A DNA stretch of 64,000 nt from Bacteroidales bacterium (lineage in GTDB: Bacteria; Bacteroidota; Bacteroidia; Bacteroidales; UBA4417). The notes beneath the pieces are model-generated. The model made no database searches and was not told where the DNA came from. It was given only the letters and a program-made list of their open reading frames with translations. The stretch covers positions 12,918-76,917 of the forward strand of contig JAURYB010000078.1 of NCBI GenBank assembly GCA_030654075.1, given 5' to 3'. Both the position numbers and the translations under genes were made by a program. How positions within the stretch are numbered: the stretch's first letter is position 1; each line of letters begins with the position of its first letter. Positions 23,769 to 46,353 of this stretch are shown piece after piece.

Positions 23769-24287
23769 TTACTCAATCCTGGAACTTCGGCGGGTTAAAA
23801 TAATCCACACCAGGATACTTAATACTATGGTTAAAATCATTTGGGCGAAAAGGAATGTAATTCCAGCTTCATCTTTAACAAATGCCATGGAAAAAACTAC
23901 AAGGTACATGGCATAGCAGAATACTTTACTTATGACAATAGAACTAAAAGCGCTCAGGAATGATTTCCTTGTTTTCTGATAAAAGTAAAGAAACAGCCAG
24001 GTGTTAAATACCAATTCAGCCATAATAATCATCATTTTCACAGGTGAAGGATGGCCTGATACAAGGAATGAGAATAAAGGCAACACAATAGCCAGTGCAT
24101 ATGCGTTCCACCGCGACGAATAAAGTAATGCCAGAATAAGCATAACACGCATAGGTTCTATATAATAAACCGGGAATTTGAACAAATGCGAAGCTGCCGG
24201 AACAAGGCCTACAAAAACCAATGCTGCAATATCGGTTATAACTGTGCTGTAACGGAATGTCCCTGAGGGATTTATTGTTGTATCCAT
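23769..24287 (-). CDS. Integral membrane protein, ECF S-component-like
   Basis: 172 aa with 5-6 hydrophobic helices; SH..P...EPM and PLFSFLVSGHP...AEL patterns resemble S components. Confidence 0.5.
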   Translation of the reverse strand: MDTTINPSGTFRYSTVITDIAALVFVGLVPAASHLFKFPVYYIEPMRVMLILALLYSSRWNAYALAIVLPLFSFLVSGHPSPVKMMIIMAELVFNTWLFLYFYQKTRKSFLSAFSSIVISKVFCYAMYLVVFSMAFVKDEAGITFLFAQMILTIVLSILVWIILTRRSSRIE

Positions 24288-24420
24288 GGAAATGTTACTT
24301 ATTTAGAAGTGTTAAAAGCAAATCTTTATTTGATTTTATAACAGGTGACAGTGGCTGGAAATTTCACCCGGGTGTATTTATTAAGCAGCAAATTTAAGGA
24401 GTTTTTTGGCATAAAAAAAT

Positions 24421-24486
24421 AAATTCCGTTAACGTTAACGGAATTTCAAAAAATGTGTATATCTTTGCCGTGTGCGTTAACGGGAA
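24421..24486. promoter_or_regulatory. Palindromic operator pair bracketing a -7 promoter element
   Basis: Perfect 26-bp palindrome AAATTCCGTTAACGTTAACGGAATTT (24421-24446); TATCTTTG (24460-24467); second site CCGTGTGCGTTAACGG (24468-24483). Confidence 0.8.
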
Positions 24487-24514
24487 TTATAACGTTCTAC
24501 TAAACTTGCAGCCA

Positions 24515-25591
24515 TTGAAAAAGGAAGCAGCAGCAAAAATCGGAATAAAAGACATTGCTAAACAAGCAAATGTTTCCATCGGCACAGTCGACCGTGTATT
24601 GCATAACCGCAGTGAAGTCTCTAATACTACCCGCGAGCAGGTTCTTAAAATAATTAACGAATTAGGCTATACCCCAAACCTTCTGGCTAAGTCGTTGGCT
24701 TCAAAAATTAAATACACTATTGCTGTTCTTATTCCTGATCCTACCAATAATACATATTGGGAAAAACCCTTAGAAGGAATTAAAGCTGCAGCCCGGGAAA
24801 TTAAAAAATTCAATTTCGAAATTCAGATTGCAACTTTCGATTACAGTAACGAAAACTCCTTCATCGAAAAAGCCAATGAAATTTTAGAATCAAATCCCAA
24901 TGGTTTCATTTTTGCCCCGGTTTTTTTTGAGTCATCGTTAAAAGTGATCGAAAAATGTGATCAAATGGAACTTCCTTATGTTTTCTTCGATGTGTTTATC
25001 GAAAACTGTAAAAACCTGGCTTATTTTGGTCAAAATTCGGTACAAAGCGGTTACCTGGCTGCCAGTTTAATGAGTTATAGTATTGATAAAGGGACCAATC
25101 ATATTTATATTGTAAAGCCGCATAATCCATCGGCTCCTGTCTATCATCTGAGTTTGCGTGAAAACGGATTTATCTCTTATTTTTCACAGGGAACTACAAA
25201 TCAAGCAACTATCCACACAATGGATGTTGATGTTTCTTCACCTTCAATCCTTGTTGAATCGTTGGATGCGATTTTTTCAAGCGACCAAAAACCCAGAGGA
25301 ATATTTGTAGCAAATTCAAGGGTTCATCTGGTAGCCCAATATTTCGAAAAAAATAAAATCGGGAATGTTGTTCTGATCGGGTACGATTTGTTGCACGAGA
25401 ATATTGAATACCTTGAAAAAGGAATAATACAGTTTCTTATCTGTCAAAAACCGGAAGAACAGGGATACAAAAGCGTGTTTTCACTTTATAACCACCTGTT
25501 TCTCAAAAAACCGGTTGATAAGGTAAATTACAGCCCGATTGATATCATCATGAAAGAGAACATTGAATACTACAAGAATTTCAAAATTTAG
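24515..25591 (+). CDS. LacI-family transcriptional regulator (hexuronate-type)
   Basis: IKDIAKQANVSIGTVDRVLHNR HTH, YTPNLLAKSL hinge, IGYD. Start placed at TTG 24515, downstream of the promoter. Confidence 0.93.
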   Translation: MKKEAAAKIGIKDIAKQANVSIGTVDRVLHNRSEVSNTTREQVLKIINELGYTPNLLAKSLASKIKYTIAVLIPDPTNNTYWEKPLEGIKAAAREIKKFNFEIQIATFDYSNENSFIEKANEILESNPNGFIFAPVFFESSLKVIEKCDQMELPYVFFDVFIENCKNLAYFGQNSVQSGYLAASLMSYSIDKGTNHIYIVKPHNPSAPVYHLSLRENGFISYFSQGTTNQATIHTMDVDVSSPSILVESLDAIFSSDQKPRGIFVANSRVHLVAQYFEKNKIGNVVLIGYDLLHENIEYLEKGIIQFLICQKPEEQGYKSVFSLYNHLFLKKPVDKVNYSPIDIIMKENIEYYKNFKI

Positions 25592-25626
25592 CGAGCGCAC
25601 TGTTTTTAACTCTAATAAATAATACT

Positions 25627-26469
25627 ATGATTTTCGATTTTTCAGACCTGAAAGGAAAAGTAGCTGTAATTACCGGTGGTGCCGGAGTTATAGGTTATTC
25701 GATTTGTGAAGCCATGGCTTCAGCTGGCATTAGAACAGCCATTATTGATATTAATAAAGAGGCTGCGGATAATACGGCTAAAATGCTCTCCGAAAAGTTT
25801 AACGTTGATTGCATCGGGGTCGAAGCCAATGTACTCGACAAGCAATCGCTGATCAACGCCAAGAAAGTAATTAACGAAAAGCTTGGGACTATTGACATTC
25901 TTATTAACGGCGCTGGCGGTAATTCGCCCAAAGCAACCACCCAGGTTGAACAGCTTACCGATATTAATGATCTCGAAAAATCATTCTTTGGCCTCGAAAT
26001 GGATGGTTTTGATAAAGTTTTTGCCCTGAATTTCAACGGTACTTTGCTTCCAAGTATGGTGTTCGCTACCGATATGTTGCAGAAAGAAAAAGGTGTAATC
26101 CTGAATATTTCTTCGATGAATTCTTTCAAGCCCTTGACAAAAATCCCTGCATATTCGGCAGCCAAAGCATCGGTTAATAACTTTACACAATGGCTGGCAG
26201 TTCACCTCGCTAAAACCGGGATTCGCGTTAACGCTGTAGCTCCGGGGTTTTTCCTCACCAACCAGAATCGTTTTTTGCTTACCGATGAAAAAACCGGTGA
26301 TATGACGCCTCGGGGATTAAAAATTATTTCAAATACTCCTGTCGGGAAATATGGAAAACCTGAGGATCTGCAAGGTGCTACACTTTTCCTGCTCTCCGAC
26401 CTTTCGGGATTTATCACTGGCATAATACTTCCTGTCGATGGTGGTTACAGTGCTTTCGGAGGGGTGTAG
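25627..26469 (+). CDS. uxuB: SDR, D-mannonate oxidoreductase (fructuronate reductase)-like
   Basis: TGGAGVIG, NGAGGNSPKATT, PLTKIPAYSAAK, APGFFLTNQNR, VDGGYSAFGGV, typical of the UxuB SDR subfamily. Confidence 0.8.
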   Translation: MIFDFSDLKGKVAVITGGAGVIGYSICEAMASAGIRTAIIDINKEAADNTAKMLSEKFNVDCIGVEANVLDKQSLINAKKVINEKLGTIDILINGAGGNSPKATTQVEQLTDINDLEKSFFGLEMDGFDKVFALNFNGTLLPSMVFATDMLQKEKGVILNISSMNSFKPLTKIPAYSAAKASVNNFTQWLAVHLAKTGIRVNAVAPGFFLTNQNRFLLTDEKTGDMTPRGLKIISNTPVGKYGKPEDLQGATLFLLSDLSGFITGIILPVDGGYSAFGGV

Positions 26470-26521
26470 AAATTTAAGATAACACTTATTTGCTTTATTG
26501 AAAGGAATTGGGTTTTAGTAG

Positions 26522-26684
26522 GCCAGAAGTCGGAAGTCAGAAGACGGAAGAAATTGCTGATTTGAGATTTTCCCCTGCGAATTGAAAATAAGTTGAAGAA
26601 ATGTTATTGGCTAAAGAAGATTCACTCACAATGATAAATGAAGTATTCAGGGTAACTTCTGACTTCCGACTTCCGTCTTCCGGC
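26522..26684. repeat. Inverted heptamer arrays
   Basis: Left CCAGAAG TCGGAAG TCAGAAG ACGGAAG; right CTTCTGA CTTCCGA CTTCCGT CTTCCGG. Confidence 0.85.
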
Positions 26685-26752
26685 ATTTTAAACTGTTACA
26701 CTAAATTAACAATAGATCCATCATAATTACACCAAATCAACATCACAACATC

Positions 26753-27832
26753 ATGGGTATTCAACTTAAAAAAGACTTTTCCTGGTCGCTACTGGTTCCT
26801 ACCAGTATGGGAGTTCGTATAACACCGATAAACGGGCAGCCTGTTCACAGCAGCGACACCTTTAAAATGCAGGCCACCAGCGCCGAAACCAACGTTGCCA
26901 GTATTTCATCCTATCTTGGGCTTCCTGTAAAAGTATTGACTACTTTCGTGAAGGATAGTCCGATTGCACAGCTAATTAAGAGCAATCTAGCCAGCCGTCG
27001 TATGGCTTACGAAGGAAAAGACGTTCCACAAGGTGATCCATGGGGCTACCGCCACCAGTTTAATATTGCCGATAGCGGCTTTGGTTCACGAGGTCCGCGG
27101 GTGCAGAATGACCGGGCCGGTGAGGTTGGACGAACTTTGAATGTTAATGATTTTGACCTGGATCGCATCTTTGTGAAAGAAGGTGTTCAGATTATGCATC
27201 TTTCAGGACTTATTGCAGCCTTATCGCCCGAAACCAGCACTTTTTGTCTTGAGCTGGCCCGTGCTGCAAAGAAAACCGGTACACGAATCTCTTTTGATCT
27301 GAATTACCGTGCTTCATTCTGGAAAGGCCGCGATAAAGAATTACATGATATCTTTACCGAAATAGCTTCAGTATCTGATATCCTGGTTGGCAACGAAGAA
27401 GATTTTCAACTCTGCCTGGGCATTGAAGGACCTGAAGCCGGAGGAAAAGATATTGATTCCAAAATTGAGAGCTTTAAAATAATGATCCAGCGGGTGAAAC
27501 TAGCTTTCCCGAATGCTTCGGTGTTTGCTACAACTCTGCGACAGGTGATCAATACCAACAAACACCTTTGGGGTTCTATCATGCTTGAAGGAGACAACTG
27601 GAATGTGATTGAACCACGCGAAATTAACGTGCTCGATCGGATTGGTGGAGGAGATGGGTTTGTGGGTGGATTACTTTACGGAATTCTGAAAGGATGGGAA
27701 CCCGAAAAATGCATGCAATTTGGATGGGCAAGCGGCGCTTTGGCAACTACCTTTTTGACTGATTATGCACAGCCTGCTGACGAAGAAATGGTTTGGAGCG
27801 TATGGCAGGGAAATGCCAGGGTCAAAAGATAA
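26753..27832 (+). CDS. PfkB-family sugar-acid kinase (divergent KdgK-like)
   Basis: SAETNVA (canonical GGEANVA), SFDLNYRASFW, GNEED, DRIGGGDGFVGG. Confidence 0.85.
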   Translation: MGIQLKKDFSWSLLVPTSMGVRITPINGQPVHSSDTFKMQATSAETNVASISSYLGLPVKVLTTFVKDSPIAQLIKSNLASRRMAYEGKDVPQGDPWGYRHQFNIADSGFGSRGPRVQNDRAGEVGRTLNVNDFDLDRIFVKEGVQIMHLSGLIAALSPETSTFCLELARAAKKTGTRISFDLNYRASFWKGRDKELHDIFTEIASVSDILVGNEEDFQLCLGIEGPEAGGKDIDSKIESFKIMIQRVKLAFPNASVFATTLRQVINTNKHLWGSIMLEGDNWNVIEPREINVLDRIGGGDGFVGGLLYGILKGWEPEKCMQFGWASGALATTFLTDYAQPADEEMVWSVWQGNARVKR

Positions 27833-28131
27833 GGCACAAGGGCCAAATTCCAAGATTCAAATTCCAAGTTATAACATGGACAAGACAGAATTAAAAAGTA
27901 ATGAAAAACACATAACAATAAATAAATAATGAAAAAGTAAGGGGGAACAATCAATACTTTTACGTTTTGTGTTATGTGTTTAATGTTTTTAATTTCTTAC
28001 TTAAATAAGATGTAAAAACCATTAAGTTAAAAAATGGCTATCAAAAAAATTAATTTAAAAGTCTTTGAATTTGTACTTGTCGTTGGCCACCACTTGGATC
28101 TTGGTTCTTGGAATTTGGGACTTGGGTCTTA
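27830..28131. repeat. Inverted heptamer arrays with a nested inner inverted repeat
   Basis: Left TAAG GCACAAG GGCCAAA TTCCAAG ATTCAAA TTCCAAG; right CTTGGAT CTTGGTT CTTGGAA TTTGGGA CTTGGGT CTTA; inner AAACACATAACA / TGTTATGTGTTT. Confidence 0.8.
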
Positions 28132-28170
28132 ACAATGAGTACTTATCATAACATCATTTAGAATACCACC

Positions 28171-29460
28171 ATGATCTATTACAACCACGGTTCAGTTGAT
28201 ACTGAATTGAGTCTTGCGGAACTCAGAAAAGGACTTTATGAAGCTTTGGACAAGTTAGGCCCGAAGCAGAAAGTCCTGATAGTGCCTCCTGATTTCACGC
28301 GATTCCATTCACAGGCAGGCATACTGACCGAAATGGCGTGGGAATATTATGGCGAAGCTGTTACGGATATTCTCCCAGCGCTTGGCACACATGTTGCCAT
28401 GTCGGAAACCGAACTGAATACTATGTTTGGTAAAGTTCCGCATTCACTTTTCCGGATTCATAACTGGAGAACTGATATTGTTACCCTTGGCATTGTACCG
28501 GCTGAATTTGTCAGCCAGGTTTCGGAGAACCAGGTAGATTTTTCATGGCCGGCACAGGTAAACAAACTGTTAGTTGAAGGAAACTTTGATCTTATTCTTT
28601 CAATCGGTCAGGTGGTTCCGCACGAAGTAATCGGAATGGCTAATTACAATAAAAATATATTTGTTGGAACAGGTGGCAAAGAAGGTATAAACAAAAGCCA
28701 TTTCCTCGGAGCAGCTTATGGAATGGAACGAATTATGGGACGTGCGGATAACCCGGTCAGGAAGGTACTCAATTATGCTTCGGAGCATTTTGCTGTTCAT
28801 CTTCCGATTGTTTACACGCACACCGTAATAGCGCGTGCTGCCGGTGGTGACATGGCTATAAAAGGGCTGTTTGTCGGCAACGACAGTGAATGCTTTAATA
28901 AAGCTGCTGAATTATCACTAAAAGTAAACTTCGAACTGCTGGACGAACCGCTAACAAAAGTTGTAGTCTTCCTCGATCCATCAGAGTTTAAAAGTACCTG
29001 GTTAGGAAATAAAAGCATTTACCGTACACGCATGGCACTGGCTAATGACGGGGAACTGATAGTTCTTGCTCCCGGGCTGAAGGAATTTGGCGAGGACAAG
29101 GAAATTGACCGACTGATCCGTAAATACGGCTATCTCACCACTCCCGAAATTCTTGAACTAGTTAAAAATAATCCCGAACTTCGCGAAAACCTGAGTGCCG
29201 CCGCTCATCTTATTCATGGCTCACACGAAAACAGGTTCAAAGTAACGTATTGTCCCGGAAAACTTACCCGCGAAGAAATTGAAAGTGTAAATTTCAGCTA
29301 TGGCAATCTGGATGAAATGATGAAAAAATATGATCCGACTAAACTGAAAGATGGATTTAATGTGGTAGATGGAGAGGAAATATTCTTTATTTCCAATCCG
29401 GCGCTTGGCTTGTGGGCATGGAAAAACCGTTTTTCAGTGTCTGCACACCCAACTCGTTAA
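28171..29460 (+). CDS. Lactate racemase (LarA/DUF2088) superfamily protein, candidate mannonate/gluconate 2-epimerase
   Basis: PPDFTR, ALGTH, HNW, VVPHEVIGMANYNK motifs; lies between uxuB/kinase and gnd. Confidence 0.75.
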   Translation: MIYYNHGSVDTELSLAELRKGLYEALDKLGPKQKVLIVPPDFTRFHSQAGILTEMAWEYYGEAVTDILPALGTHVAMSETELNTMFGKVPHSLFRIHNWRTDIVTLGIVPAEFVSQVSENQVDFSWPAQVNKLLVEGNFDLILSIGQVVPHEVIGMANYNKNIFVGTGGKEGINKSHFLGAAYGMERIMGRADNPVRKVLNYASEHFAVHLPIVYTHTVIARAAGGDMAIKGLFVGNDSECFNKAAELSLKVNFELLDEPLTKVVVFLDPSEFKSTWLGNKSIYRTRMALANDGELIVLAPGLKEFGEDKEIDRLIRKYGYLTTPEILELVKNNPELRENLSAAAHLIHGSHENRFKVTYCPGKLTREEIESVNFSYGNLDEMMKKYDPTKLKDGFNVVDGEEIFFISNPALGLWAWKNRFSVSAHPTR

Positions 29461-29539
29461 AGTGTCTGTACACCTGAAAGGTGTCTGACACTAATTCAAC
29501 TCATTCGAGTGTCAGACACCCGTTGGGTGTGCAGACACT
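29436..29539. repeat. REP/BIME-like cluster of imperfect palindromes
   Basis: AGTGTCTGCACACCCAAC (29436-53), AGTGTCTGTACACCTGAAAGGTGTCTGACACT (29461-92), AGTGTCAGACACCCGTTGGGTGTGCAGACACT (29508-39). Confidence 0.85.
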
Positions 29540-29565
29540 AAATAAACCGAATAATTGCACATAAA

Positions 29566-30699
29566 TTGAACAGACCAAGAATTGTAGCCGACGATAAAAT
29601 CCCTTTCCTTAAAGGGGTGCTGGAGCCTTATGCAGATATTATTTATTTGCCGGGTAACCTGATAAACCGGGAATCCGTTTTGGATGCCGATGCTTTATTG
29701 ATACGTACGAGAACGAAGTGTAATGCAACATTACTTGAAGGTACGGCTGTTAAATTTATCGCTACTGCCACAATCGGTTACGATCATATTGATACTGAAT
29801 ATTGCAAATCAAAAAATATCACCTGGTTAAATGTTCCCGGCTGCAATTCGGCTTCGGTGCAGCAGTATATTACTGCGGCACTCGTAACTCTTGCATTTAA
29901 CAACGATTATGCTCTCAGCGATAAAACACTTGGAATTATCGGGGTAGGAAATGTCGGCTCTAAAGTTCAGAAAGCCGCAGTAATCCTGGGAATGAAAGTA
30001 AAACTTAACGATCCTCCCAGAGCACGTAAAGAAGGAAAAAGCTGTTTTGTTTCACTGGATGAAATCCTTGAAACATCCGACATCATTACAATTCACGTTC
30101 CTTTGAATAAGACAGGCCCGGATAAAACACTTCATCTTTTCGATACTGAATTATTAAGAAAAATGAAGAATGGTTCCTGGCTGATTAACTCTTCACGCGG
30201 TGAAGTGGTTGAAACTAATGCATTAAAAAGCGCGTTATCTTCAGGTAAACTGAGCGGTGCTATACTTGATGTTTGGGAGAATGAACCGGCTATAGACCTT
30301 GAACTCTTAAGCCAGGCTTATATTTCCACACCACATATTGCAGGATATTCAATTGATGGAAAGGCAAAAGGAACATCGCAGGTTGTACAGGCACTCAGTG
30401 CGTTTTTTGGCCTGCCTTTGCTTGATTTCTATCCACCGGTGCTTCCTGAGCCATTGCTTTCCGAAATTGTAATCGAAGGAGCCGGGAAATCATCGTTTGA
30501 AATTGTTCATGGAGCCGTGCTGCATACGTATCCCATCATGAAGGATCATATCCTTTTACAACGCTCACCCTCTACATTTGAGCAACAAAGAGGACAATAT
30601 CCTGTGCGTCGCGAATTTCCATCATACACCGTCAGACTTAGCAACGGAAAGCCAAAAGCGGTTGAAATGCTTCTTAAGCTTGGATTTAAAGTCAAATAA
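29566..30699 (+). CDS. pdxB: 4-phosphoerythronate dehydrogenase
   Basis: IVADDKIPF, IRTRT, ATATIGYDHID, PGCNS, GVGNVG, LDVWENEP, TPHIAGYS, FEQQRGQYPVRRE tail; TTG start. Confidence 0.9.
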   Translation: MNRPRIVADDKIPFLKGVLEPYADIIYLPGNLINRESVLDADALLIRTRTKCNATLLEGTAVKFIATATIGYDHIDTEYCKSKNITWLNVPGCNSASVQQYITAALVTLAFNNDYALSDKTLGIIGVGNVGSKVQKAAVILGMKVKLNDPPRARKEGKSCFVSLDEILETSDIITIHVPLNKTGPDKTLHLFDTELLRKMKNGSWLINSSRGEVVETNALKSALSSGKLSGAILDVWENEPAIDLELLSQAYISTPHIAGYSIDGKAKGTSQVVQALSAFFGLPLLDFYPPVLPEPLLSEIVIEGAGKSSFEIVHGAVLHTYPIMKDHILLQRSPSTFEQQRGQYPVRREFPSYTVRLSNGKPKAVEMLLKLGFKVK

Positions 30700-30734
30700 A
30701 AATACTACCTAAAAAATGAGGATAGAAACCAATT

Positions 30735-30945
30735 AGTACCTCAAGTTATAAGTGCCTAAAGTGCCTAAAGTTAATTACTGAACTGAGATTTAATGAAATA
30801 TTCTTTGGGCCAGTAAAAATTAAATGTGCCTGGATTTACTGTTTCTCAATAGTTATCGTAGTTCGTAGAAAAAGGTCTTTCCATCATAGAAAATTCATTT
30901 ACGTAAGTAGCGATAATTTTAGGCACTTTAGGCACTTTAAGTACT
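30735..30945. repeat. Inverted nonamer arrays
   Basis: Left (AAGTGCCTA)2 AAGTTA; right TAATTT (TAGGCACTT)2 TAAGTACT. Confidence 0.85.
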
Positions 30946-31017
30946 CTCAATAAATTTGATCATTATTAAGTTGAATAGATACAGGAAATTTAATACTCAA
31001 TTAATACAAACAAAAAC

Positions 31018-32472
31018 ATGAAAACATTAGCAGACATCGGATTGGTTGGACTTGCCGTAATGGGAGAGAACCTGGTATTGAATATGGAAAGCAAAGGCTT
31101 TACCGTGGCCGTTTTTAACCGCACAACCGACAAAGTGGATCACTTTATAAACGGACGGGGCAAAGGCAAAAATATTATTGGAACTCACTCCATCGAAGAA
31201 TTGGCTAAAAACCTGGAACGCCCCCGGAAAGTAATGTTAATGGTTAAAGCAGGCAAGGCTGTGGATGATTTCATCGAGTTGCTCTTACCATATTTAGAAC
31301 CAGGTGATATCATTATTGATGGTGGCAATACGCTTTTTACCGATACAGATCGCCGTACTAAATATGTTGAAAGTAAAGGACTTCTGTATATAGGAACCGG
31401 TGTTTCGGGTGGAGAAGAAGGAGCTTTGCTTGGCCCTTCAATTATGCCCGGAGGTTCAAAGGCTGCATGGCCTTTTGTAAAGCCAATTTTCCAGGCTATC
31501 TCTGCCAAAGTTGATAATGGAACACCTTGTTGTGACTGGGTTGGTGAGAACGGCGCCGGCCATTTTGTTAAAATGGTGCACAACGGTATTGAATACGGCG
31601 ATATGCAGCTGATTTGTGAGGCTTACCAGATTATGCGCGATCTGCTGGGAATGTCGGCCGATGAAATGCATACTGTTTTTACAGAATGGAACGAAACTGA
31701 ACTCGATAGTTACCTGATTGAAATAACCCGCGATATACTTGCAGTTAAAGATACAGATGGACAGCCGCTTATTGATAAAATTGTGGATACAGCCGGACAA
31801 AAAGGAACCGGCAAATGGACAGCCGTTACTGCTCTTGATTTAGGCATTCCGCTTACACTGATTGGTGAAGCTGTATTTTCACGCTGCTTATCGGCTATCA
31901 AGGATGAACGTGTTGCTGCTTCGAAAATTCTGTCAGGGCCGAAACCATCGTTTTCAGGCGATAAGGTTCAATTTATCGGGTATCTGAAACAGGCAGTGTA
32001 TGCTTCCAAAATAATATCGTACGCCCAGGGTTACAGCCTTATGCGCGCTGCTGCCGAAGAGAATAAATGGGATTTGAATTATGGCGGCATAGCCCTGATG
32101 TGGCGCGGCGGTTGTATTATCCGTTCCGTATTCCTCAACAAAATTAAGGATGCTTTCGATCTTAATCACGAATTAGCAAACCTCCTGCTCGATCCTTTCT
32201 TCACCGCAACCATTGAGAAATCGCAGAACGGCTGGCGCCAGGTGGTAGCTACCGCCCAGCTTAATGGAATTCCAATACCTACATTATCCACTGCCCTGAA
32301 CTATTACGACGGGTACCGGGCGGAATTCCTGCCTGCAAACCTGTTACAGGCGCAACGCGACTATTTCGGCGCACATACCTACGAACGATTCGACCAGCCC
32401 CGCGGAAAATTCTTCCACACCAACTGGACCGGGCGTGGAGGTGATACTTCGTCATCAACGTATAATGTGTAA
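31018..32472 (+). CDS. gnd: NADP-dependent 6-phosphogluconate dehydrogenase (decarboxylating)
   Basis: GLAVMG, NRT, GVSGGEEGA, KMVHNGIEYGDMQ, QKGTGKW, QAQRDYFGAH. Confidence 0.97.
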   Translation: MKTLADIGLVGLAVMGENLVLNMESKGFTVAVFNRTTDKVDHFINGRGKGKNIIGTHSIEELAKNLERPRKVMLMVKAGKAVDDFIELLLPYLEPGDIIIDGGNTLFTDTDRRTKYVESKGLLYIGTGVSGGEEGALLGPSIMPGGSKAAWPFVKPIFQAISAKVDNGTPCCDWVGENGAGHFVKMVHNGIEYGDMQLICEAYQIMRDLLGMSADEMHTVFTEWNETELDSYLIEITRDILAVKDTDGQPLIDKIVDTAGQKGTGKWTAVTALDLGIPLTLIGEAVFSRCLSAIKDERVAASKILSGPKPSFSGDKVQFIGYLKQAVYASKIISYAQGYSLMRAAAEENKWDLNYGGIALMWRGGCIIRSVFLNKIKDAFDLNHELANLLLDPFFTATIEKSQNGWRQVVATAQLNGIPIPTLSTALNYYDGYRAEFLPANLLQAQRDYFGAHTYERFDQPRGKFFHTNWTGRGGDTSSSTYNV

Positions 32473-32542
32473 GCTTTGATAAGCCAGGCTGCCTGATCAA
32501 AGAGTTTTTATAATCAACCGGATATTTAATTTTCAGCGTTTT

Positions 32543-35500
32543 ATGAAAAAAATAATTGTTGTTGCCGTATTGGTGTTTTTGTTTCTGAATGATTTTGCTC
32601 AGAATCCAAATTCAGTCCAATCCTTTACCACTATTGCCAACGATGGAGCCTGGTGTTGGTTTTCAGATCCCAGGGCGGTTTCCTTTAAAGGAAATTCGGA
32701 TCGTACGTATGTGGGATGGATTTCGAGCCAGGGTGATGTGACTATAGCTGCTTATGATAATGTGACAGGGATAACGGAACAGAAAATCGTAAAGGCAGGA
32801 TTTGAAAAGGACGATCATAACAATCCATCCATTCTTATCCGGCCTGATGGCAAAATACTCGTTTTCTATTCTGAACATGGAGGTAAAATGTTCCTGGTAA
32901 CATCAAGGAATCCCGAAGATATATCATCATGGGAAAAAGAACATGAATTGAAAGAATTCGGAAGCAACGTATGTTACTCAAATCCGGTGCAGCTAACCTC
33001 CGAGAACAACCGTATCTATTTATTCTGGCGCGGAAGCGACTGGCAACCGGCTTTTTCGTATTCTGATGATGCCGGTTTTACATGGGCAGAGGCTAAGGCA
33101 TATATTAAAACGCCAAAAAGTGATGGCAGCCAGCGGCCTTATGTAAAAGTAAGCTCTGATGGAATAAAGCGTATTGATTTTGCATTCACGGATGGCCATC
33201 CCCGCAACGAAGCCGAAAATTCCATCTATCATATGTATTATGAAAATGGGAATATCTATCAAACCAACGGCAAACCGGTTTGTAGAATAAATGAACTCCC
33301 GGTAAGTATTTCGCATATAAATAAATTGTACGACGGAACAATTTCTAAAGTAAGGGCGTGGATATGGGACATTGCAACAGATGAAAAAAGCCGACCTGTA
33401 ATTGTCTATACACAACTACCCGGCGAAACGGACCATCGCTATCACTATGCCCGTTGGAATGGTAAAAAATGGCTGGATGTTGAAATAACACAAGCCGGAA
33501 AGTGGTTTCCCGAAACGCCTGAGAATACTGTTGAACGCGAACCCCATTATTCCGGAGGTATTGTTTTGGACCACACCAATCCATCAGTTGTTTATCTTTC
33601 AAAACCTGTAAATTCAGTTTTCGAAATTGAAAAATGGACAACACCTGATCAGGGTAAAAAATGGAACACACAGGCTTTCACACAAAATTCATCAACCAAT
33701 AATATTCGCCCCTTTGTAGTCCGGAATTATTCTGCCAATGGACCTAAAGTACTTTGGATGAATGTATTCGATCATTATGCCCATTATACTGATTTTCTGA
33801 CGAGTATAAAATGTGATTTGCCTGTAAAAGCAGTATTGGGGAATCCTGCAGACGTTTTAAGCATTATGAGACGGGTAGCTGACTGGCAGTTGCAAAATCC
33901 ACGTCACGAAACCTGGGACTGGACCAATGGCGCTCTGTATACCGGAATAATGGCCGTGGGACGTGTTGCCAATGATGAAAAATATTATAAGGAAATGATA
34001 AAAGTTGGTGACAATAATCACTGGAAAGAAGGCCCACGCCGGTATTTTGCTGATGATTATTGCGTTGGTCAGATGTATGCTGAATTATTTAATGTTTACC
34101 AAAGGCCTTATATGATTGAAGGAATGAAAAACCTGGGTGACAGTATTATTGCCAGACCTCATACCGAAAGTCTTGAATTTGTAAATGATATTGTTTTAAG
34201 GGAATGGGCCTGGTGCGATGCTTTATTTATGGGGCCAACCACCTTATCCGCCATTTATAAAAGTACGGGAGAAATAAAATTCCTAGATATCGCCAATAAG
34301 CTTTGGTGGAAGACTACTGATTATCTGTATGATAAAGATGAGAAACTTTACTACAGGGATAGCCGTTTCTTTGATAGAAGGGAAGCCAATGGCAAAAAAG
34401 TGTTCTGGAGCAGGGGCAATGGCTGGGTTTTCGGTGGTCTGGCGAGGGTCATTAGTACTATGCCTGAAAACTATCCTGACCGCTCCCGTTATTTGAACTT
34501 ATTTAATGAAATGGCCGAAAAACTGGCTTCCATTCAATGTAATGATGGCACCTGGCATGCCAGCCTTCTGGATCCCGATAAATTTCCGGCTAAAGAAACC
34601 AGTGGTACAGCATTTTATTGCTATGGTCTGGCATGGGGAATAAACCAGGGAATCCTGGACAAAGGCAAATATCTGCCGGTTGTACTAAAAGCCTGGAGCG
34701 CCCTAACGGAATCAGTTCATTCAAACGGCAAGTTGGGTTATGTTCAGCAGATAAGCGACAGACCTGAAAATCCAAAGTATGATGACTCTGAGGTTTATGC
34801 AGTAGGTGCTTTCCTGTTAGCAGGCGAGCAGCTGATTAAAATGGCTCATGTGCAAACTAAAGGTGAAATTGAAATCAAGAATACACTCGGAATTTGGAGA
34901 AAAGATGAAGTAATTGAATTGGATTGGGCGACACTGATTCAAAACGATGCTTCTTTGGAATCTGTTCCGCTTATCGTGAAGAACAAATTGACTGGCATGC
35001 AATTGCCATATCAAATCGTAAAAGATGAAACTGGGAAACCGGTAAAACTTTTGGTTCAATCTTCCATTGCACCCGGAACCACCATTTATATTAATATCAA
35101 AAAGGGAACTCCGGAAAAGTTCAAAACCAAAACGTTCGGACGGTTTGTGCCCGAAAGAAAAGATGATTTTGCCTGGGAAAACGATAAAATTGCTTTCCGA
35201 ATGTACGGCCCGGCATTGCAGTCTACGGGTGAAATCAGCAGTGGAATTGATGTCTGGCTGAAGCGTACTTCCGAAGTGATTATTGACAAATGGTACAAGT
35301 CGGATGATTACCATGTGGATCATGGCGAGGGTTTGGATAGCTATAAAGTTGGTCCTACATTGGGAGCCGGTGGTATTGCTCCTTTTGCCAACGGGAAACT
35401 TTATTATTCAAAAAACTGGACAACCTATAAAGTTTTAACAACCGGAAATCTGCAAACCGTTTTCGAACTTACGTATAGCCCATGGCTTTTTAACGGGAAA

Positions 35501-35923
35501 GAAATATCCGAAACCAAACGAATCACTTTAAATGCCGGGTCACAACTAAACCAGATGGATGTTACTTATAATGCAAAAGATATGGATACCATTCCTGTGG
35601 CAACAGGGATTATAAAAAGAGCTGAAAAAGGAGTTGTGACCATGAATGAGATTTCCGGATATATTTCTTACTGGGAACCTGCAAGTAAAAAAGATGGAAT
35701 AACCGGAATTGGTTTGGTGGTGCCCGGAAACACAGGTATGTCAGTAGTCGAAAATCATATCGCAGCTTTCTCTTACGCTTTGAATAAGAAGTCATTCAGG
35801 TATTACCAGGGAGCTTGCTGGGACAAAGCCGGTGAAATTGTGAATGCACAGGAATGGGAAAATCATCTGAATGAGTTTTCAATGAAATTGAAGAATCCGT
35901 TACAAATAAGTATAAACCAGTAA
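32543..35923 (+). CDS. Three-domain secreted enzyme: BNR-repeat beta-propeller + GH105 + DUF4861
   Basis: N-domain DGAWCWFSDPRA, DDHNNPS, RPYVK; middle WDWTNGALY, WCDALFM, FWSRGNGW, ETSGTA; C-domain FVPERKDDFAWENDKIAFRMYG. Confidence 0.85.
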   Translation: MKKIIVVAVLVFLFLNDFAQNPNSVQSFTTIANDGAWCWFSDPRAVSFKGNSDRTYVGWISSQGDVTIAAYDNVTGITEQKIVKAGFEKDDHNNPSILIRPDGKILVFYSEHGGKMFLVTSRNPEDISSWEKEHELKEFGSNVCYSNPVQLTSENNRIYLFWRGSDWQPAFSYSDDAGFTWAEAKAYIKTPKSDGSQRPYVKVSSDGIKRIDFAFTDGHPRNEAENSIYHMYYENGNIYQTNGKPVCRINELPVSISHINKLYDGTISKVRAWIWDIATDEKSRPVIVYTQLPGETDHRYHYARWNGKKWLDVEITQAGKWFPETPENTVEREPHYSGGIVLDHTNPSVVYLSKPVNSVFEIEKWTTPDQGKKWNTQAFTQNSSTNNIRPFVVRNYSANGPKVLWMNVFDHYAHYTDFLTSIKCDLPVKAVLGNPADVLSIMRRVADWQLQNPRHETWDWTNGALYTGIMAVGRVANDEKYYKEMIKVGDNNHWKEGPRRYFADDYCVGQMYAELFNVYQRPYMIEGMKNLGDSIIARPHTESLEFVNDIVLREWAWCDALFMGPTTLSAIYKSTGEIKFLDIANKLWWKTTDYLYDKDEKLYYRDSRFFDRREANGKKVFWSRGNGWVFGGLARVISTMPENYPDRSRYLNLFNEMAEKLASIQCNDGTWHASLLDPDKFPAKETSGTAFYCYGLAWGINQGILDKGKYLPVVLKAWSALTESVHSNGKLGYVQQISDRPENPKYDDSEVYAVGAFLLAGEQLIKMAHVQTKGEIEIKNTLGIWRKDEVIELDWATLIQNDASLESVPLIVKNKLTGMQLPYQIVKDETGKPVKLLVQSSIAPGTTIYINIKKGTPEKFKTKTFGRFVPERKDDFAWENDKIAFRMYGPALQSTGEISSGIDVWLKRTSEVIIDKWYKSDDYHVDHGEGLDSYKVGPTLGAGGIAPFANGKLYYSKNWTTYKVLTTGNLQTVFELTYSPWLFNGKEISETKRITLNAGSQLNQMDVTYNAKDMDTIPVATGIIKRAEKGVVTMNEISGYISYWEPASKKDGITGIGLVVPGNTGMSVVENHIAAFSYALNKKSFRYYQGACWDKAGEIVNAQEWENHLNEFSMKLKNPLQISINQ

Positions 35924-35971
35924 GTTTAAATAGCATTAATACTATTATTATTCACTTGTAAAGAGAAACAT

Positions 35972-37333
35972 ATGAAAAAAAATCTGCTTATTTACTTGTT
36001 CGTTTTGTTATTCCTTCCTGCTTTTTCGCAAACAGAAAAAGGGTGGATGGATTTATTTAACAAAAAAAATCTCGATGGCTGGATACAAAAGGGGGGAGCC
36101 GCAAAGTACACCGTTGTAGATGGCGCAATAGTTGGCGAAACAGTTCCGGATTCTCCGAATTCATTCCTTTGCACAGAAAAAGAATACGGTGATTTTATCC
36201 TCGAATTGGAATTGCTGGTCGATACTTCGATGAATTCCGGCATACAATTCCGGAGCTTAAGCAAACCGGAGTACCGGAATGGCGTTGTTCATGGTTACCA
36301 GGTGGAAATAGATCCCTCCAAGCGCGCCTGGAGCGGTGGTATTTACGACGAACAGGTGCGGGGATGGCTGTATTCGCTGGAAATAAATCCGGAAGCAAAA
36401 CCTGCGTTTAAAAACGGGCAATGGAACAAATACCGCATCGAGGCCATCGGAAATACTATTAAAACCTGGGTGAATGATATTCCGACGGCTGATATTATTG
36501 ATAATGCAAGGGCAACGGGTTTTATTGCTCTGCAGGTTCATGCTATCAATGCCAAAGAAAAACCCTGGACGTTGGGCACCCAGGTTAAGTGGAAAAACAT
36601 CCGGATAATGACCCAGGATTTAGCCAAAAACCGGAAAAAGACAACAAAAGAAATTGTGCAGCTTAATTTTATTCCCAATACCATCTCGGATTATGAAAAA
36701 AAAAACGGCTGGAATCTCCTGTTTGATGGTGCATCAACAAAAGGATGGAGAGGCGTTTACAAGGGAAAATTTCCTGAAAAAGGCTGGGAGGTAAAAGAGG
36801 GGGAACTTATTGTACAAGCCTCTGCCGGCGCCGAATCAACCAATGGCGGCGATATCGTAACTATTGAGGAGTTTGCAGATTTTGAGCTGATTGCCGATTT
36901 TAAAATTACGGAAGGTGCAAACAGTGGCATAAAATATTATGTTACTGAAAAAGAGAACAATAAAGGGTCCGCTATTGGACTCGAATACCAGATTTTAGAC
37001 GATAAGAACCATCCTGATGCAAAATTAGGACGTGATGGAAACCGGACAGTTTCATCGCTTTACGATTTAATTACTGCCGGAAATAAAAGAGTGAATCCAA
37101 TCGGAGAATGGAACACGGCCCGTATCGTTTCTAAAAATAAGCATGTCGAACATTGGTTAAATGGCATGAAAGTGCTGGAATACGAACGGGGAAGCAAGGA
37201 ATTCCGCGACTTGGTGGCTGCAAGCAAATACAAGGACTGGCCGGATTTCGGCGAAGCGCCTAAAGGACGAATTCTGTTGCAGGATCATGGCAATAAAGTG
37301 TCTTTCAGAAGTATAAAAATCAGGAAATTGTAA
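35972..37333 (+). CDS. Tandem DUF1080 (3-keto-glycoside hydrolase/hydratase family) protein
   Basis: Two copies of the LF.G....GW / NSGI / YQ / WN..RI / G.I.LQ.H / F.NI.I pattern; signal peptide. Confidence 0.88.
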   Translation: MKKNLLIYLFVLLFLPAFSQTEKGWMDLFNKKNLDGWIQKGGAAKYTVVDGAIVGETVPDSPNSFLCTEKEYGDFILELELLVDTSMNSGIQFRSLSKPEYRNGVVHGYQVEIDPSKRAWSGGIYDEQVRGWLYSLEINPEAKPAFKNGQWNKYRIEAIGNTIKTWVNDIPTADIIDNARATGFIALQVHAINAKEKPWTLGTQVKWKNIRIMTQDLAKNRKKTTKEIVQLNFIPNTISDYEKKNGWNLLFDGASTKGWRGVYKGKFPEKGWEVKEGELIVQASAGAESTNGGDIVTIEEFADFELIADFKITEGANSGIKYYVTEKENNKGSAIGLEYQILDDKNHPDAKLGRDGNRTVSSLYDLITAGNKRVNPIGEWNTARIVSKNKHVEHWLNGMKVLEYERGSKEFRDLVAASKYKDWPDFGEAPKGRILLQDHGNKVSFRSIKIRKL

Positions 37334-37440
37334 ATATTCTTGTCTAACGATCTTGTGTAGAGAAAAGCATTTTATAGCAAAATGTTTCCCGTTTCTAAGT
37401 GGCTAAACTTTTATCGTTTTACAAACTAATTCATTACAAA

Positions 37441-38793
37441 ATGGAAAATTCAAGAAGAGATTTTATAAAAACAGTTGGAATTGGTTCAATAGGTCTTGCG
37501 ATTAGTGAAACAGTTTTGGGTTCGCCACTTTTCGGGAATCCAAACGGAGCCAATGATAAAATAAGAGTTGGTTTGATAGGTTTTTCGAACCGTGCCAAGG
37601 ATACACTCATACCTGCTTTTATGAGTGTTGCCGATGAGTTAAATTTCGAAATTGTAGCTGTTTCTGATTTATGGAGCCGCCGTCGGGAAGAAGCTGCTGC
37701 GTATTTTGAGAAAAATTATCAGAAAAAAATCATAACAACCCGCAACAACGAAGAGCTTTATGCGAAAAACATAGTAGACGCTGTAATTATCAGCACACCC
37801 GACTTTTCGCATGCGCTTCACACAATCGAAGCAATTAAAGCGGGCTGTGACGCTTATGTTGAAAAGCCATTTGCAGAAACCATGGAAGATGCCCGCCTGG
37901 TACTTGCAGCTGCTGAAAATTCAGGACGAATAATACAGATTGGCTCGCAACGCCGAAGCGGTAACAATTATATCGCTGCCAACGAATATATTAAATCAGG
38001 TAAGTTCGGTAAAATAACCATGGTCGAAATGTCGTGGAATGTCAATCAGCCCGGCCGATGGAGACTTCCTCAACTGATAAAGGATATTAAAAAAGAGGAT
38101 GTAGATTGGGATCGTTTTCTGATGAACCGCCCCAGGGTAGATTGGGATCCGCGTATTTACTGCGAATACCGCCTTTTCTGGCCATTCTCATCAGGTATTC
38201 CCGGTCAGTGGATGTCGCACCAGATCGATACCGTGCATTGGTTTACCGGTCTCTCCTATCCTAAAAGCGTAGTGGCCAACGGAGGTATTTACATGTGGAA
38301 CGACGGACGAAAAAATGCAGACACCATGACTGCGGTTTTTGAATATGGCAAAAAGAATGATCCATCGCAGGATTTCCAGGTAGTTTATACATCGCGGATG
38401 CATAATTCAGCAGGAGGTACACGGGAATTGTATTATTCCAATGGCGGAATGCTCAACCTCGATACCAATAAAATAACACCGGAAGGTGGCCTCAATAAAA
38501 ATATGGCTGATGCAATGGGAATGCAACCTTTCCTTTTACCGGAATTTGACTTGCCCTCGGTGAAAACGGTTACTGCGGCAAATACATCGGCCGATCCGAT
38601 GTCGGCAGCGCATGTCAGGAACTGGATGGAATGCATACGCAGCCGCAAAACACCGAATGCGCCTGTCGAAGCCGGGTATAATCATTCCATTGCTAACATT
38701 ATGACCACTGCCGCGCTTCATACCGGGCTTAAAGTAACTTTCGATGAAAATAAACAGGAAGTAATGGCTGGTGATAAGGTTTTTAAATACTAA
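37441..38793 (+). CDS. Tat-exported Gfo/Idh/MocA oxidoreductase
   Basis: SRRDFIK twin-arginine signal (ATG 37441), ISTPDFSH, YVEKP, QIGSQRRS, WMSHQID. Confidence 0.9.
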   Translation: MENSRRDFIKTVGIGSIGLAISETVLGSPLFGNPNGANDKIRVGLIGFSNRAKDTLIPAFMSVADELNFEIVAVSDLWSRRREEAAAYFEKNYQKKIITTRNNEELYAKNIVDAVIISTPDFSHALHTIEAIKAGCDAYVEKPFAETMEDARLVLAAAENSGRIIQIGSQRRSGNNYIAANEYIKSGKFGKITMVEMSWNVNQPGRWRLPQLIKDIKKEDVDWDRFLMNRPRVDWDPRIYCEYRLFWPFSSGIPGQWMSHQIDTVHWFTGLSYPKSVVANGGIYMWNDGRKNADTMTAVFEYGKKNDPSQDFQVVYTSRMHNSAGGTRELYYSNGGMLNLDTNKITPEGGLNKNMADAMGMQPFLLPEFDLPSVKTVTAANTSADPMSAAHVRNWMECIRSRKTPNAPVEAGYNHSIANIMTTAALHTGLKVTFDENKQEVMAGDKVFKY

Positions 38794-38816: not shown

Positions 38817-39851
38817 ATGAAGAAAATTGTAACATTCGGAGAAATCATGCTGCGGTTGGCAACACCAGGCTACCAGCGCTTTTCGCAGGCAACAAGCCTG
38901 CAGGCAACTTTTGGAGGAGGCGAAGCCAATGTAGCCGTATCGCTTGCCAATTATGGTTTAAAGGCTGAGTTTATAAGCCGTTTGCCCAAAAACGATATAG
39001 CTCAGGCTTGCATCATGGATTTACACAAGCACGGTGTGAGTACTGAAAACATGGAATTTGGCGGAGAACGCATTGGTATCTATTTCCTCGAAACCGGCGC
39101 AGTTGCACGTCCAAGTAAAGTGGTATACGACCGGGCTAATTCAGCTATTTCCGAAATTAAACCCGGGATGGTAAACTGGGAAAGAGTGTTTGAAAATACA
39201 CAATGGTTTCACTGGACAGGTATAACACCCGCTTTATCGCAGAGCGCCGCTGATACGGTAAAAGAAGCAATAGAAGTTGCGAACCGCCTGGGAATTACCG
39301 TTTCAACAGATTTGAATTTTCGTAAAAATCTATGGAAATATGGTAAAACAGCCTCCGAAGTTATGCCTGGTCTTGTTTCCGGTTGCGATATTATTCTGGG
39401 TAATGAAGAGGATGCCGATATGGTGTTTGGAATAAAACCTGAAGGCGTAAATGTTACAAGCGGGCATGTTGATGCTGCTGCTTATCAATCTGTCTGTGAG
39501 CAGATGATGGCGCGCTTCCCCAGGGCAAAAAAGGTAATTGTAACCTTGCGTGGTTCAATCAATGCCAATCACAATACCTGGTCGGGAGTGTTATGGGACG
39601 GAATAAAACTTATGAAAGCTCCTGATTATGATATTACTCACATTGTTGATCGCGTTGGCGGAGGTGACAGTTTTATGGGCGGCTTGATTTATGGCTTGAT
39701 TTCATACCCCGGCGACGATCAGAAAGCTTTAAACTTTGCGGTTGCCGCATCTTGTCTGAAACACACCATTTATGGCGATTTTAACCTGGTAACAGTTGCT
39801 GAAGTGGAAAACCTGATGAAAGGTGATGGGTCGGGACGGGTTTCGCGTTAA
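38817..39851 (+). CDS. kdgK: 2-dehydro-3-deoxygluconokinase
   Basis: VTFGEIMLRL, FGGGEANVA, YDRANSA, GITPAL, DLNFRKNLW, DRVGGGDSF. Confidence 0.92.
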   Translation: MKKIVTFGEIMLRLATPGYQRFSQATSLQATFGGGEANVAVSLANYGLKAEFISRLPKNDIAQACIMDLHKHGVSTENMEFGGERIGIYFLETGAVARPSKVVYDRANSAISEIKPGMVNWERVFENTQWFHWTGITPALSQSAADTVKEAIEVANRLGITVSTDLNFRKNLWKYGKTASEVMPGLVSGCDIILGNEEDADMVFGIKPEGVNVTSGHVDAAAYQSVCEQMMARFPRAKKVIVTLRGSINANHNTWSGVLWDGIKLMKAPDYDITHIVDRVGGGDSFMGGLIYGLISYPGDDQKALNFAVAASCLKHTIYGDFNLVTVAEVENLMKGDGSGRVSR

Positions 39852-41357: not shown

Positions 41358-41364
41358 TTCAATT

Positions 41365-46333: not shown

Positions 46334-46353
46334 AAGTACTAAACCAACTAATA

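Follow-up and report, generated by a model that had tools for sequence, protein, structure and literature searches.

Introduction

For Thermotoga maritima, a route encoded by uxaE, uxuB, gntE, gntK and gnd was proposed by Rodionova 2012, as related in papers citing that work. Its epimerase is a homologue of the lactate racemase LarA. According to Desguin 2020 (PMC7583248), in which LarA homologues (LarAHs) are divided into groups, GntE1 and GntE2 epimerise D-mannonate and D-gluconate, while group 18 is listed as "G2E3", a "putative hexonate epimerase", for which the available part of the paper gives no assay. Group-18 members named there include those of Tannerella forsythia (Bacteroidota) and Melioribacter roseus, and its Table S1 gives as their gene context a short-chain dehydrogenase/reductase (SDR, 36%), 6-phosphogluconate dehydrogenase (Gnd, 32%), a ribokinase-family kinase (16%), UxaC (12%) and KduI (12%). 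A eukaryotic homologue, LarAH15 of Phytophthora nicotianae, is reported to be a D-gluconate/D-mannonate 2-epimerase of narrow specificity, with a Km of 9.4 mM and a kcat of 111 s-1 (PMC11770544). It probably belongs to group 18 as well, since PITG_09435 of P. infestans is listed there in the dataset of Desguin 2020 (PMC7583248). Here, we describe a gene cluster containing a group-18 LarA homologue (LarAH18) from a Bacteroidales bacterium (UBA4417; assembly GCA_030654075.1). The stretch of DNA analysed, called the window, comprises 64,000 nucleotides (positions 12918–76917 of contig JAURYB010000078.1, our contig C54).

We consider it likely, judging from the genes present, that the region 25627–32472 of the window and the uxaE-kduI-kduD-uxaC-eda genes upstream of it form a branch of hexuronate catabolism ending in the pentose phosphate pathway. 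As an annotation the cluster is ordinary: both the LarAH18 family with its gene context and the route can already be found in print and in NCBIfam. An earlier reading of the window from its letters alone (the original prediction) did not know the route as characterised in this phylum. We found no literature to the contrary, but group 18, with a member from the Bacteroidota and its gene context, was published in 2020 (PMC7583248). The LarA enzymes known so far need a cofactor from LarB, LarE and LarC, and the strongly conserved LarAH18 occurs in many complete genomes that lack all three. New here are the extent and cleanness of this absence, together with evidence that LarAH18 is under purifying selection; if the pattern holds, it bears on the natural supply of the nickel-pincer cofactor.

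Gene identities and fold of the LarA homologue

Gene identities were assigned from the Pfam and NCBIfam/TIGR profile scores of the open reading frames (ORFs) of the window, using curated cut-offs. The scan places genes for a LacI-family regulator, an SDR, a PfkB kinase, the LarA homologue, PdxB and Gnd on the forward strand between 24455 and 32472, all of them intact. These are the six co-oriented genes named by the original prediction; the start it gave, 25627, is that of the SDR gene, and the LacI gene (24455–25591) precedes that start.

The LarA homologue (28171–29460, forward strand) scores 40.8 bits with the Lar_N profile and 664.7 bits with NF052594 (cut-off 500), the latter match spanning model positions 3–410 of 411. 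NF052594 is titled "nickel-dependent putative hexonate epimerase" and corresponds to group 18 as defined in Desguin 2020. With the lactate racemase model NF033504, the score is 25.8 bits. The nearest protein of known structure is GntE2 of T. maritima (PDB entry 4NAR, E 4.5e-35), followed at a distance by a lactate racemase (2YJG, E 0.28). A model calculated with AlphaFold2 (pLDDT 86.3) was used for a Foldseek search, in which 4NAR is again the top match (E 1.3e-26, TM score 0.74, 25% identity). Malate and lactate racemases can be superposed with TM scores of 0.54–0.67 and sequence identities of 14–17%, including Lactiplantibacillus plantarum LarA (5HUQ) with 0.65 and 17%, and no fold other than that of LarA was returned below E 1e-3. 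By sequence and by Foldseek ranking, the protein is thus placed among the gluconate 2-epimerases, apart from the true lactate racemases, in agreement with the original prediction.

Residues were mapped using the alignment with GntE2 and the residue numbers of Desguin 2020 (PMC7583248). The catalytic residues Asp41, His74, His151 and Lys281 are the equivalents of LarA Asp72, His108, His174 and Lys298, while Arg44, Lys161 and His177, for the nickel-pincer cofactor, are those of Arg75, Lys184 and His200. The GntE-type signature is also kept: the second catalytic histidine is followed by a glutamate and a valine (His151-Glu152-Val153), and a small residue, Asn280, precedes Lys281. Asp41, Arg44, His74, His151, Glu152, Val153, Lys161, His177, Asn280 and Lys281 are invariant in all 81 group-18 sequences compared (the window protein and those of 80 related loci). 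From these features, we predict the protein to be a C2 epimerase of D-mannonate and D-gluconate or of their 6-phosphates.

The SDR gene (25627–26469, forward strand; 366.9 bits with NF006132, cut-off 281) is assigned as an SDR-type fructuronate reductase or D-mannonate oxidoreductase, the role of UxuB. It is followed by the gene for a divergent KdgK-like PfkB kinase, called Kin (26753–27832, forward strand), in which the Pfam PfkB profile matches residues 145–333 only, with 68.8 bits. The best relative of known structure is the 2-dehydro-3-deoxygluconate (KDG) kinase of T. maritima (2AFB, E 7.4e-30). Kin retains the DRIGGGDGF motif and is a candidate 6-kinase of hexonates, with gluconate, mannonate or fructuronate as possible substrate. 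Gnd, the NADP-dependent decarboxylating 6-phosphogluconate dehydrogenase (31018–32472, forward strand; TIGR00873, 769.2 bits), is encoded 1.6 kb downstream of the LarA homologue. It gives a single tblastn match in the genome, which is 97.9% complete, and Zwf is encoded on a separate contig (C16). A KdgK-like 2-dehydro-3-deoxygluconokinase, which the original prediction had set apart from Kin, is indeed found at 38817–39851, at the end of the co-directional gene string (forward strand; Pfam PfkB 109.8 bits, kinase part of NF041633 499.5 bits). It shares 27% identity with Kin, and in related loci its orthologues (72–77% identity) have UxaC and Eda as neighbours; KdgK is assigned to the KDG branch.

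Between the LarA homologue and Gnd, the gene for PdxB, 4-phosphoerythronate dehydrogenase, is located (29566–30699, forward strand; NF001309 449.3 bits, cut-off 434; carboxy-terminal DUF3410 36.4 bits). It is the sole close copy in the genome, and PdxJ is encoded elsewhere. Five relatives searched have one PdxB-type match each, three of them over the family cut-off. The gene is far from LarAH18 in one of these (G003) and adjoins it in another (G025), while the LarAH18 loci of G004, G011 and G048 are without it. PdxB was considered as a pathway enzyme and rejected, given its single copy per genome and its position elsewhere in relatives, which make it look like a housekeeping passenger of the operon.

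Pathway partners in the genome and proposed route

Upstream of the cluster, at 7720–12981 of contig C54, UxaE, KduI, KduD, UxaC and Eda are encoded, and a second LacI gene is also located directly upstream. The tagaturonate epimerase UxaE scores 183.4 bits with PF16257 and UxaC scores 675 bits. In the route we propose, UxaC would convert glucuronate and galacturonate to fructuronate and tagaturonate, UxaE would convert tagaturonate to fructuronate, and the SDR would reduce fructuronate to D-mannonate. Inversion at C2 by the group-18 LarA homologue and phosphorylation at C6 by the PfkB kinase would then lead to 6-phosphogluconate, from which Gnd would form ribulose 5-phosphate and CO2. On balance, fructuronate, a reduced cofactor and ATP would be turned into 6-phosphogluconate and this into ribulose 5-phosphate. 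That the epimerase acts first and the kinase second is somewhat more likely than the reverse. We infer the enzyme activities, the order of the steps, the regulation and the co-transcription from sequence.

The classical genes for mannonate and altronate use were sought in the window and in the whole genome. No UxuA is present among the scanned ORFs of the window, as the original prediction had stated, and in the genome UxuA-like matches are confined to contig C153. There, two short ORFs score 184 and 197 bits with NF003027 (cut-off 191); the genome has no canonical UxuA. The genome also contains no altronate dehydratase UxaA, no UxaB or UxuB of the Mannitol_dh type, no P-loop gluconokinase (TIGR01313) and no FGGY gluconokinase over the cut-off (TIGR01314). 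From these profile searches, mannonate appears to have no other canonical outlet in this genome than the branch.

The two UxuA-like ORFs (C153: 5547–6551 and 12503–13414) lack about 80 residues from the middle of canonical UxuA. Their neighbours are LutB/LutC-like, RraA-like aldolase, FAD-oxidase and sulfatase genes, a context unrelated to that of the operon, and this gene set may belong to a different sugar-acid pathway.

The line of conversion given by the original prediction, from fructuronate to mannonate, by GntE-like C2 epimerisation to 6-phosphogluconate and on to Gnd, is supported by protein family, fold, genome content and gene order. Apart from PdxB and the cofactor supply, two of its statements need correction. 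The branch was said to operate instead of KDG formation; the KDG route is retained for unsaturated uronates, via KduI, KduD, KdgK and Eda, and the branch would be a shunt. It was also said to yield NADPH, but the route is redox-neutral, since the reductase consumes reduced cofactor, as described for the corresponding pathway by Valk 2020 (PMC6978723).

Gene order in related loci

The LarA homologue has more than 569 relatives in the species-representative genome collection, and locus counts cover the best 80 loci. Their record titles name Bacteroidales, Ignavibacteria, Planctomycetota, Verrucomicrobiae, Spirochaetota and Calditrichaceae. Gnd is encoded on the same strand and within 4.5 kb of LarAH18 in 70 of the 80, and seven of the other ten have less than 3 kb of downstream DNA; the adjacency of gnd, on which the original prediction leaned, is thus conserved in several phyla. 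An SDR is present near LarAH18 in 69 loci. A Kin orthologue with at least 60% identity is present in 54, another PfkB kinase in five and a phosphofructokinase-family gene in five; no kinase is seen in 14, and two further loci have too little upstream DNA. PdxB is found in 46 loci. Within 10 kb of LarAH18, a UxaE-like gene is located in 43 loci, UxaC in 36 and UxuA in eight, and in one locus UxuA lies between the SDR and LarAH18. The arrangement of SDR, Kin, LarAH and Gnd is not due to chance.

For counts per genome, two sets of carriers were used. The first consists of 50 LarAH18 genomes to which the loci led, a set rich in metagenome-assembled genomes. The second was drawn from a sample of 401 genomes from the phylum with a completeness of 90% or more; LarAH18 exceeds the cut-off in 25 of these (the genome described here included), and in a 26th (G338) the gene is split across two contig ends, while four genomes with matches below the cut-off (174–189 bits) were excluded. 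The same gene-order pattern was found in 24 high-quality genomes.

The gene order bears on the possibility that LarAH18 acts on some other 2-hydroxy acid (a hexonate, uronate or aldarate) and that its linkage to gnd and pdxB is mere clustering of housekeeping genes. Group 18 is only a "putative hexonate epimerase" in the available text of Desguin 2020, the authors who assayed GntE1 are reported to have suspected a different native substrate, and the housekeeping genes gnd and pdxB each exist as one copy in this genome. Against this, Gnd adjoins LarAH18 in 70 loci across phyla, but PdxB is present in only 46; UxaC, UxaE and fructuronate reductase would supply mannonate in a genome without a canonical dehydratase; and the Glu-Val signature is common to the assayed GntEs. 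Altogether, we judge another substrate improbable and retain mannonate and gluconate, or their phosphates, as the predicted ones.

Loci without Kin often contain, upstream of LarAH18, a gene for a pyrophosphate (PPi)-phosphofructokinase-like enzyme (NF010675, 371.6 bits) and one for a HAD-like protein of about 300 amino acids. This module was seen in loci L078, L088, L062, L093, L032, L118, L119 and L122, where a GFO/IDH/MocA oxidoreductase gene often comes after LarAH18.

The identity and position of the kinase genes have a bearing on the order of the two middle steps. In the reverse order, Kin would be a mannonate (or fructuronate) 6-kinase and LarAH18 a 6-phosphomannonate 2-epimerase, which we regard as possible, though rather unlikely. 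Such an order has a precedent: Lactobacillus suebicus extracts phosphorylate mannonate and then epimerise 6-phosphomannonate, with the genes unassigned, and direct conversion of mannonate to gluconate was not found in them, according to the portion of Valk 2020 (PMC6978723) at hand. In the literature searched, no other paper names 6-phosphomannonate. A kinase gene lies directly upstream of LarAH18 in 64 of the 80 loci. Classical gluconokinases are missing from all 26 high-quality LarAH18 genomes (TIGR01313 in none of the 25 relatives, TIGR01314 over the cut-off in none of the 26). In some loci, Kin is replaced by the PPi-phosphofructokinase-like enzyme, the usual substrate of which, fructose 6-phosphate, resembles fructuronate. 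For free mannonate, high Km values are reported for the assayed GntEs (9.4, 17 and 120 mM), and the basic residues Arg95, Arg100, Lys274, Arg287, Lys318 and His349, each conserved in at least 78 of the 81 LarAH18 sequences, are all absent from GntE2, which may point to a phosphorylated substrate. On the other side, the assayed relatives are reported to epimerise free mannonate with good kcat, the kinase candidates of L. suebicus are described as GntK homologues and not PfkB proteins, and the group-18 members in the available part of the source include no Lactobacillus. We keep epimerisation before phosphorylation as the preferred order.

Gene identities, genome content and recurring gene order together make the branch from hexuronates to 6-phosphogluconate well supported in silico. 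Several observations weigh against it. Of the 50 carrier genomes, 22 also encode canonical UxuA, sometimes next to LarAH18, and because of this the branch is to be seen not as a simple replacement of UxuA but as a conserved shunt. In the present genome, the two UxuA-like ORFs of contig C153 could still dehydrate mannonate. Part of the clustering may reflect housekeeping genes and not a dedicated pathway, Gnd and PdxB being the sole copies in the genome. The operon genes are separated by intergenic gaps of 283, 338 and 318 bp, with a long hairpin in each. In the literature searched, no assay was found for any bacterial member of group 18. Finally, the cofactor required by the family in vitro has no visible source, given the absence of LarB, LarC and LarE from the genome.

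Absence of cofactor genes and conservation of LarAH18

No LarC match was found in the genome, and the best LarB and LarE matches reach 51 bits (cut-off 175) and 41 bits (cut-off 150), respectively. When LarB, LarC and LarE from a relative served as tblastn queries, the only matches were weak: a PurE-like one of 30% identity and a short PP-loop one. A working nickel-pincer enzyme of the Thermotoga type, which the original prediction took as its model, can thus not be assumed. Among the 50 carrier genomes, LarC is encoded in 18, LarB in 21 and LarE in 24; 17 have all three and 26 have none, among them two single-chromosome assemblies (G003 and G025). The 25 high-quality carriers other than the present genome fall into two classes: nine encode LarB, LarC and LarE together, while the other sixteen encode none of them.

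LarAH18 is preserved on both sides of this division. None of the ten key residues varies among the 27 sequences from genomes without the cofactor genes. Ratios of non-synonymous to synonymous substitution (dN/dS) were calculated pairwise (NG86) for pairs with dS below 2; they are 0.035–0.121 in ten pairs without the cofactor genes and 0.030–0.091 in six pairs with them, rough values, as many dS are near saturation. Where the cofactor genes are missing, LarAH18 shows no decay. LarAH18 could be imagined as an inactive relic in genomes lacking LarB, LarC and LarE, which are missing from the present genome and from 16 of the 25 other high-quality carriers, but the invariant catalytic and cofactor residues, the similar dN/dS values and the intact ORFs, all sited in conserved operons, make this reading highly improbable, and we disfavour it.

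Two apparent associations were considered and dropped. LarC is encoded in 41 of the 401 sampled genomes, namely 9 of the 26 carriers and 32 of the 375 non-carriers; this enrichment was rejected as a sign that LarAH18 depends on it, since LarC tracks taxonomy (17 of 17 in f27 and 8 of 8 in f25). In the set of 50, a PfkB kinase gene adjoins LarAH18 in all 26 genomes without LarB, LarC and LarE and in 11 of the other 24. This link between kinase type and cofactor genes was also abandoned, the variant with the phosphofructokinase-like and HAD-like genes being present in high-quality genomes without the cofactor genes (G326, G374 and G262).

Three carriers have LarB and LarE over the cut-off and no match to LarC1: two Anaerohalosphaeraceae (G048 and G045, loci L091 and L087, the former a single chromosome) and G008. 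Their LarC may be divergent, judging from the profile scores.

It is conceivable, with doubt slightly prevailing, that LarA epimerases of group 18 function in vivo in hosts that lack the known route of nickel-pincer cofactor synthesis. Possible sources of cofactor would be uptake from neighbours, as an unrecognised auxotrophy, synthesis by enzymes not yet known, or the use of another cofactor in the same pocket. A cofactor-free enzyme seems least likely, because LarAHs produced in Escherichia coli are reported to have been assayed with added nickel-pincer nucleotide (NPN). In the literature as available, the opposite case, cofactor genes without LarA, is discussed; a LarA homologue without cofactor genes was not found there, which is not a claim that it is absent from print. 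Likewise, no paper was found on expression of DUF2088 or lactate racemase genes on pectin.

Regulator, intergenic elements and surrounding genes

The LacI-family regulator (24455–25591 as the maximal ORF, forward strand) scores 63.5 bits with Pfam LacI and 122.3 bits with Peripla_BP_4. Its true start is probably downstream of that of the maximal ORF, since the helix-turn-helix begins at residue 31. A LacI homologue is encoded within 8 kb in 44 of the 80 related loci. Upstream of the gene, a perfect 26-bp palindrome, AAATTCCGTTAACGTTAACGGAATTT, is located at 24421–24446, with no strand assigned, and a related half-site is found at 24468–24490. The 14-bp core of the palindrome occurs exactly once in the window; among 100 loci, it is confined to the three closest relatives (L014–L016), where it likewise precedes LacI. 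We regard the palindrome as a candidate operator to which LacI may bind, and through which it would probably repress the gene string.

All four gaps between genes of the operon contain long inverted repeats (26526–26673, 27830–28131, 29461–29539 and 30750–30937). Their arms are 18–40 nucleotides long, 80–100% complementary and 15–222 nucleotides apart, and are composed of short tandem repeats. The arm repeat of the first gap has 97 matches on many contigs, in arrays phased by seven nucleotides. This distribution suggests that the hairpins belong to a genome-wide family of elements resembling repetitive extragenic palindromes. An Rfam scan of 24000–33000 gave nothing but a chance microRNA match (E 0.45), and promoter and terminator scans gave counts no higher than in shuffled sequence (44 versus 38.1 and 19 versus 16.2). 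One copy of the motif TAnnTTTG, which we take to be the Bacteroidetes -7 box, precedes LacI and another precedes Gnd, too few copies to interpret.

Beyond Gnd, the string of genes continues on the same strand with a protein of 1126 amino acids, a double 3-keto-disaccharide hydrolase, a GFO/IDH/MocA oxidoreductase and the KdgK-like kinase. The first three (32543–38793) are a fusion of BNR_4, GH88 and DUF4861 domains of the BT3233 family, a two-domain hydrolase and a glycoside 3-dehydrogenase-like enzyme; their domain content hints at an oxidative 3-keto route for the cleavage of glycosides. Genes for a glycerate kinase and a permease of the GntP/CitMHS-like type (40104–42516) run on the reverse strand towards the end of the operon string. 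The remainder of the window is devoted to pectin utilisation, with three glycoside hydrolase (GH) 28 genes, a pectinesterase, GH88/105, GH43 and Pel9A-like genes, SusC/SusD pairs and a hybrid two-component system (HTCS) regulator. A tandem pair of purple-acid-phosphatase-like genes (44954–47736) lies inside this polysaccharide utilisation region.

Comparison with known systems

The window protein resembles group 18 of Desguin 2020 (PMC7583248) in its membership of NF052594 and in the signature Asp, Arg, His, His-Glu-Val, Lys, His, Trp-Leu-Gly-Asn-Lys, and the context of SDR, Gnd, ribokinase-family kinase, UxaC and KduI matches that of Table S1. At the level of the family there is no difference; carriers without cofactor genes were not found mentioned in the available part of that paper. 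The Phytophthora nicotianae LarAH15 differs in being eukaryotic and was, according to the source, assayed with NPN added in vitro.

When the locus is compared with the GntE2 route of T. maritima, the catalytic and cofactor residues, UxaC, UxaE, fructuronate reductase, Gnd and the proposed end product are alike. However, GntE2 belongs to another group (LarAH20) and is 25% identical, the kinase is a classical gluconokinase there and of the PfkB type here, and T. maritima, which served as control in the searches, has LarB, LarC and LarE, while the present genome has none of them. With the LarA of L. plantarum (5HUQ), the fold and the cofactor-binding and catalytic residues are shared, despite the sequence identity of only 17%; the substrate side has Glu-Val here and Phe-Phe there.

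The pathway of L. suebicus, as far as the available text of Valk 2020 (PMC6978723) describes it, has the same entry (UxaC, UxaE and UxuB) and the same exit (6-phosphogluconate and Gnd) and is likewise redox-neutral overall. It differs in that activities were measured in cell extracts, with the genes unassigned, and in that phosphorylation precedes epimerisation. The identification of the step from mannonate to 6-phosphogluconate was named there as desirable for redox-neutral use of pectin sugars, and the PfkB kinase or the PPi-phosphofructokinase-like kinase, together with LarAH18, now provide candidate genes for it.

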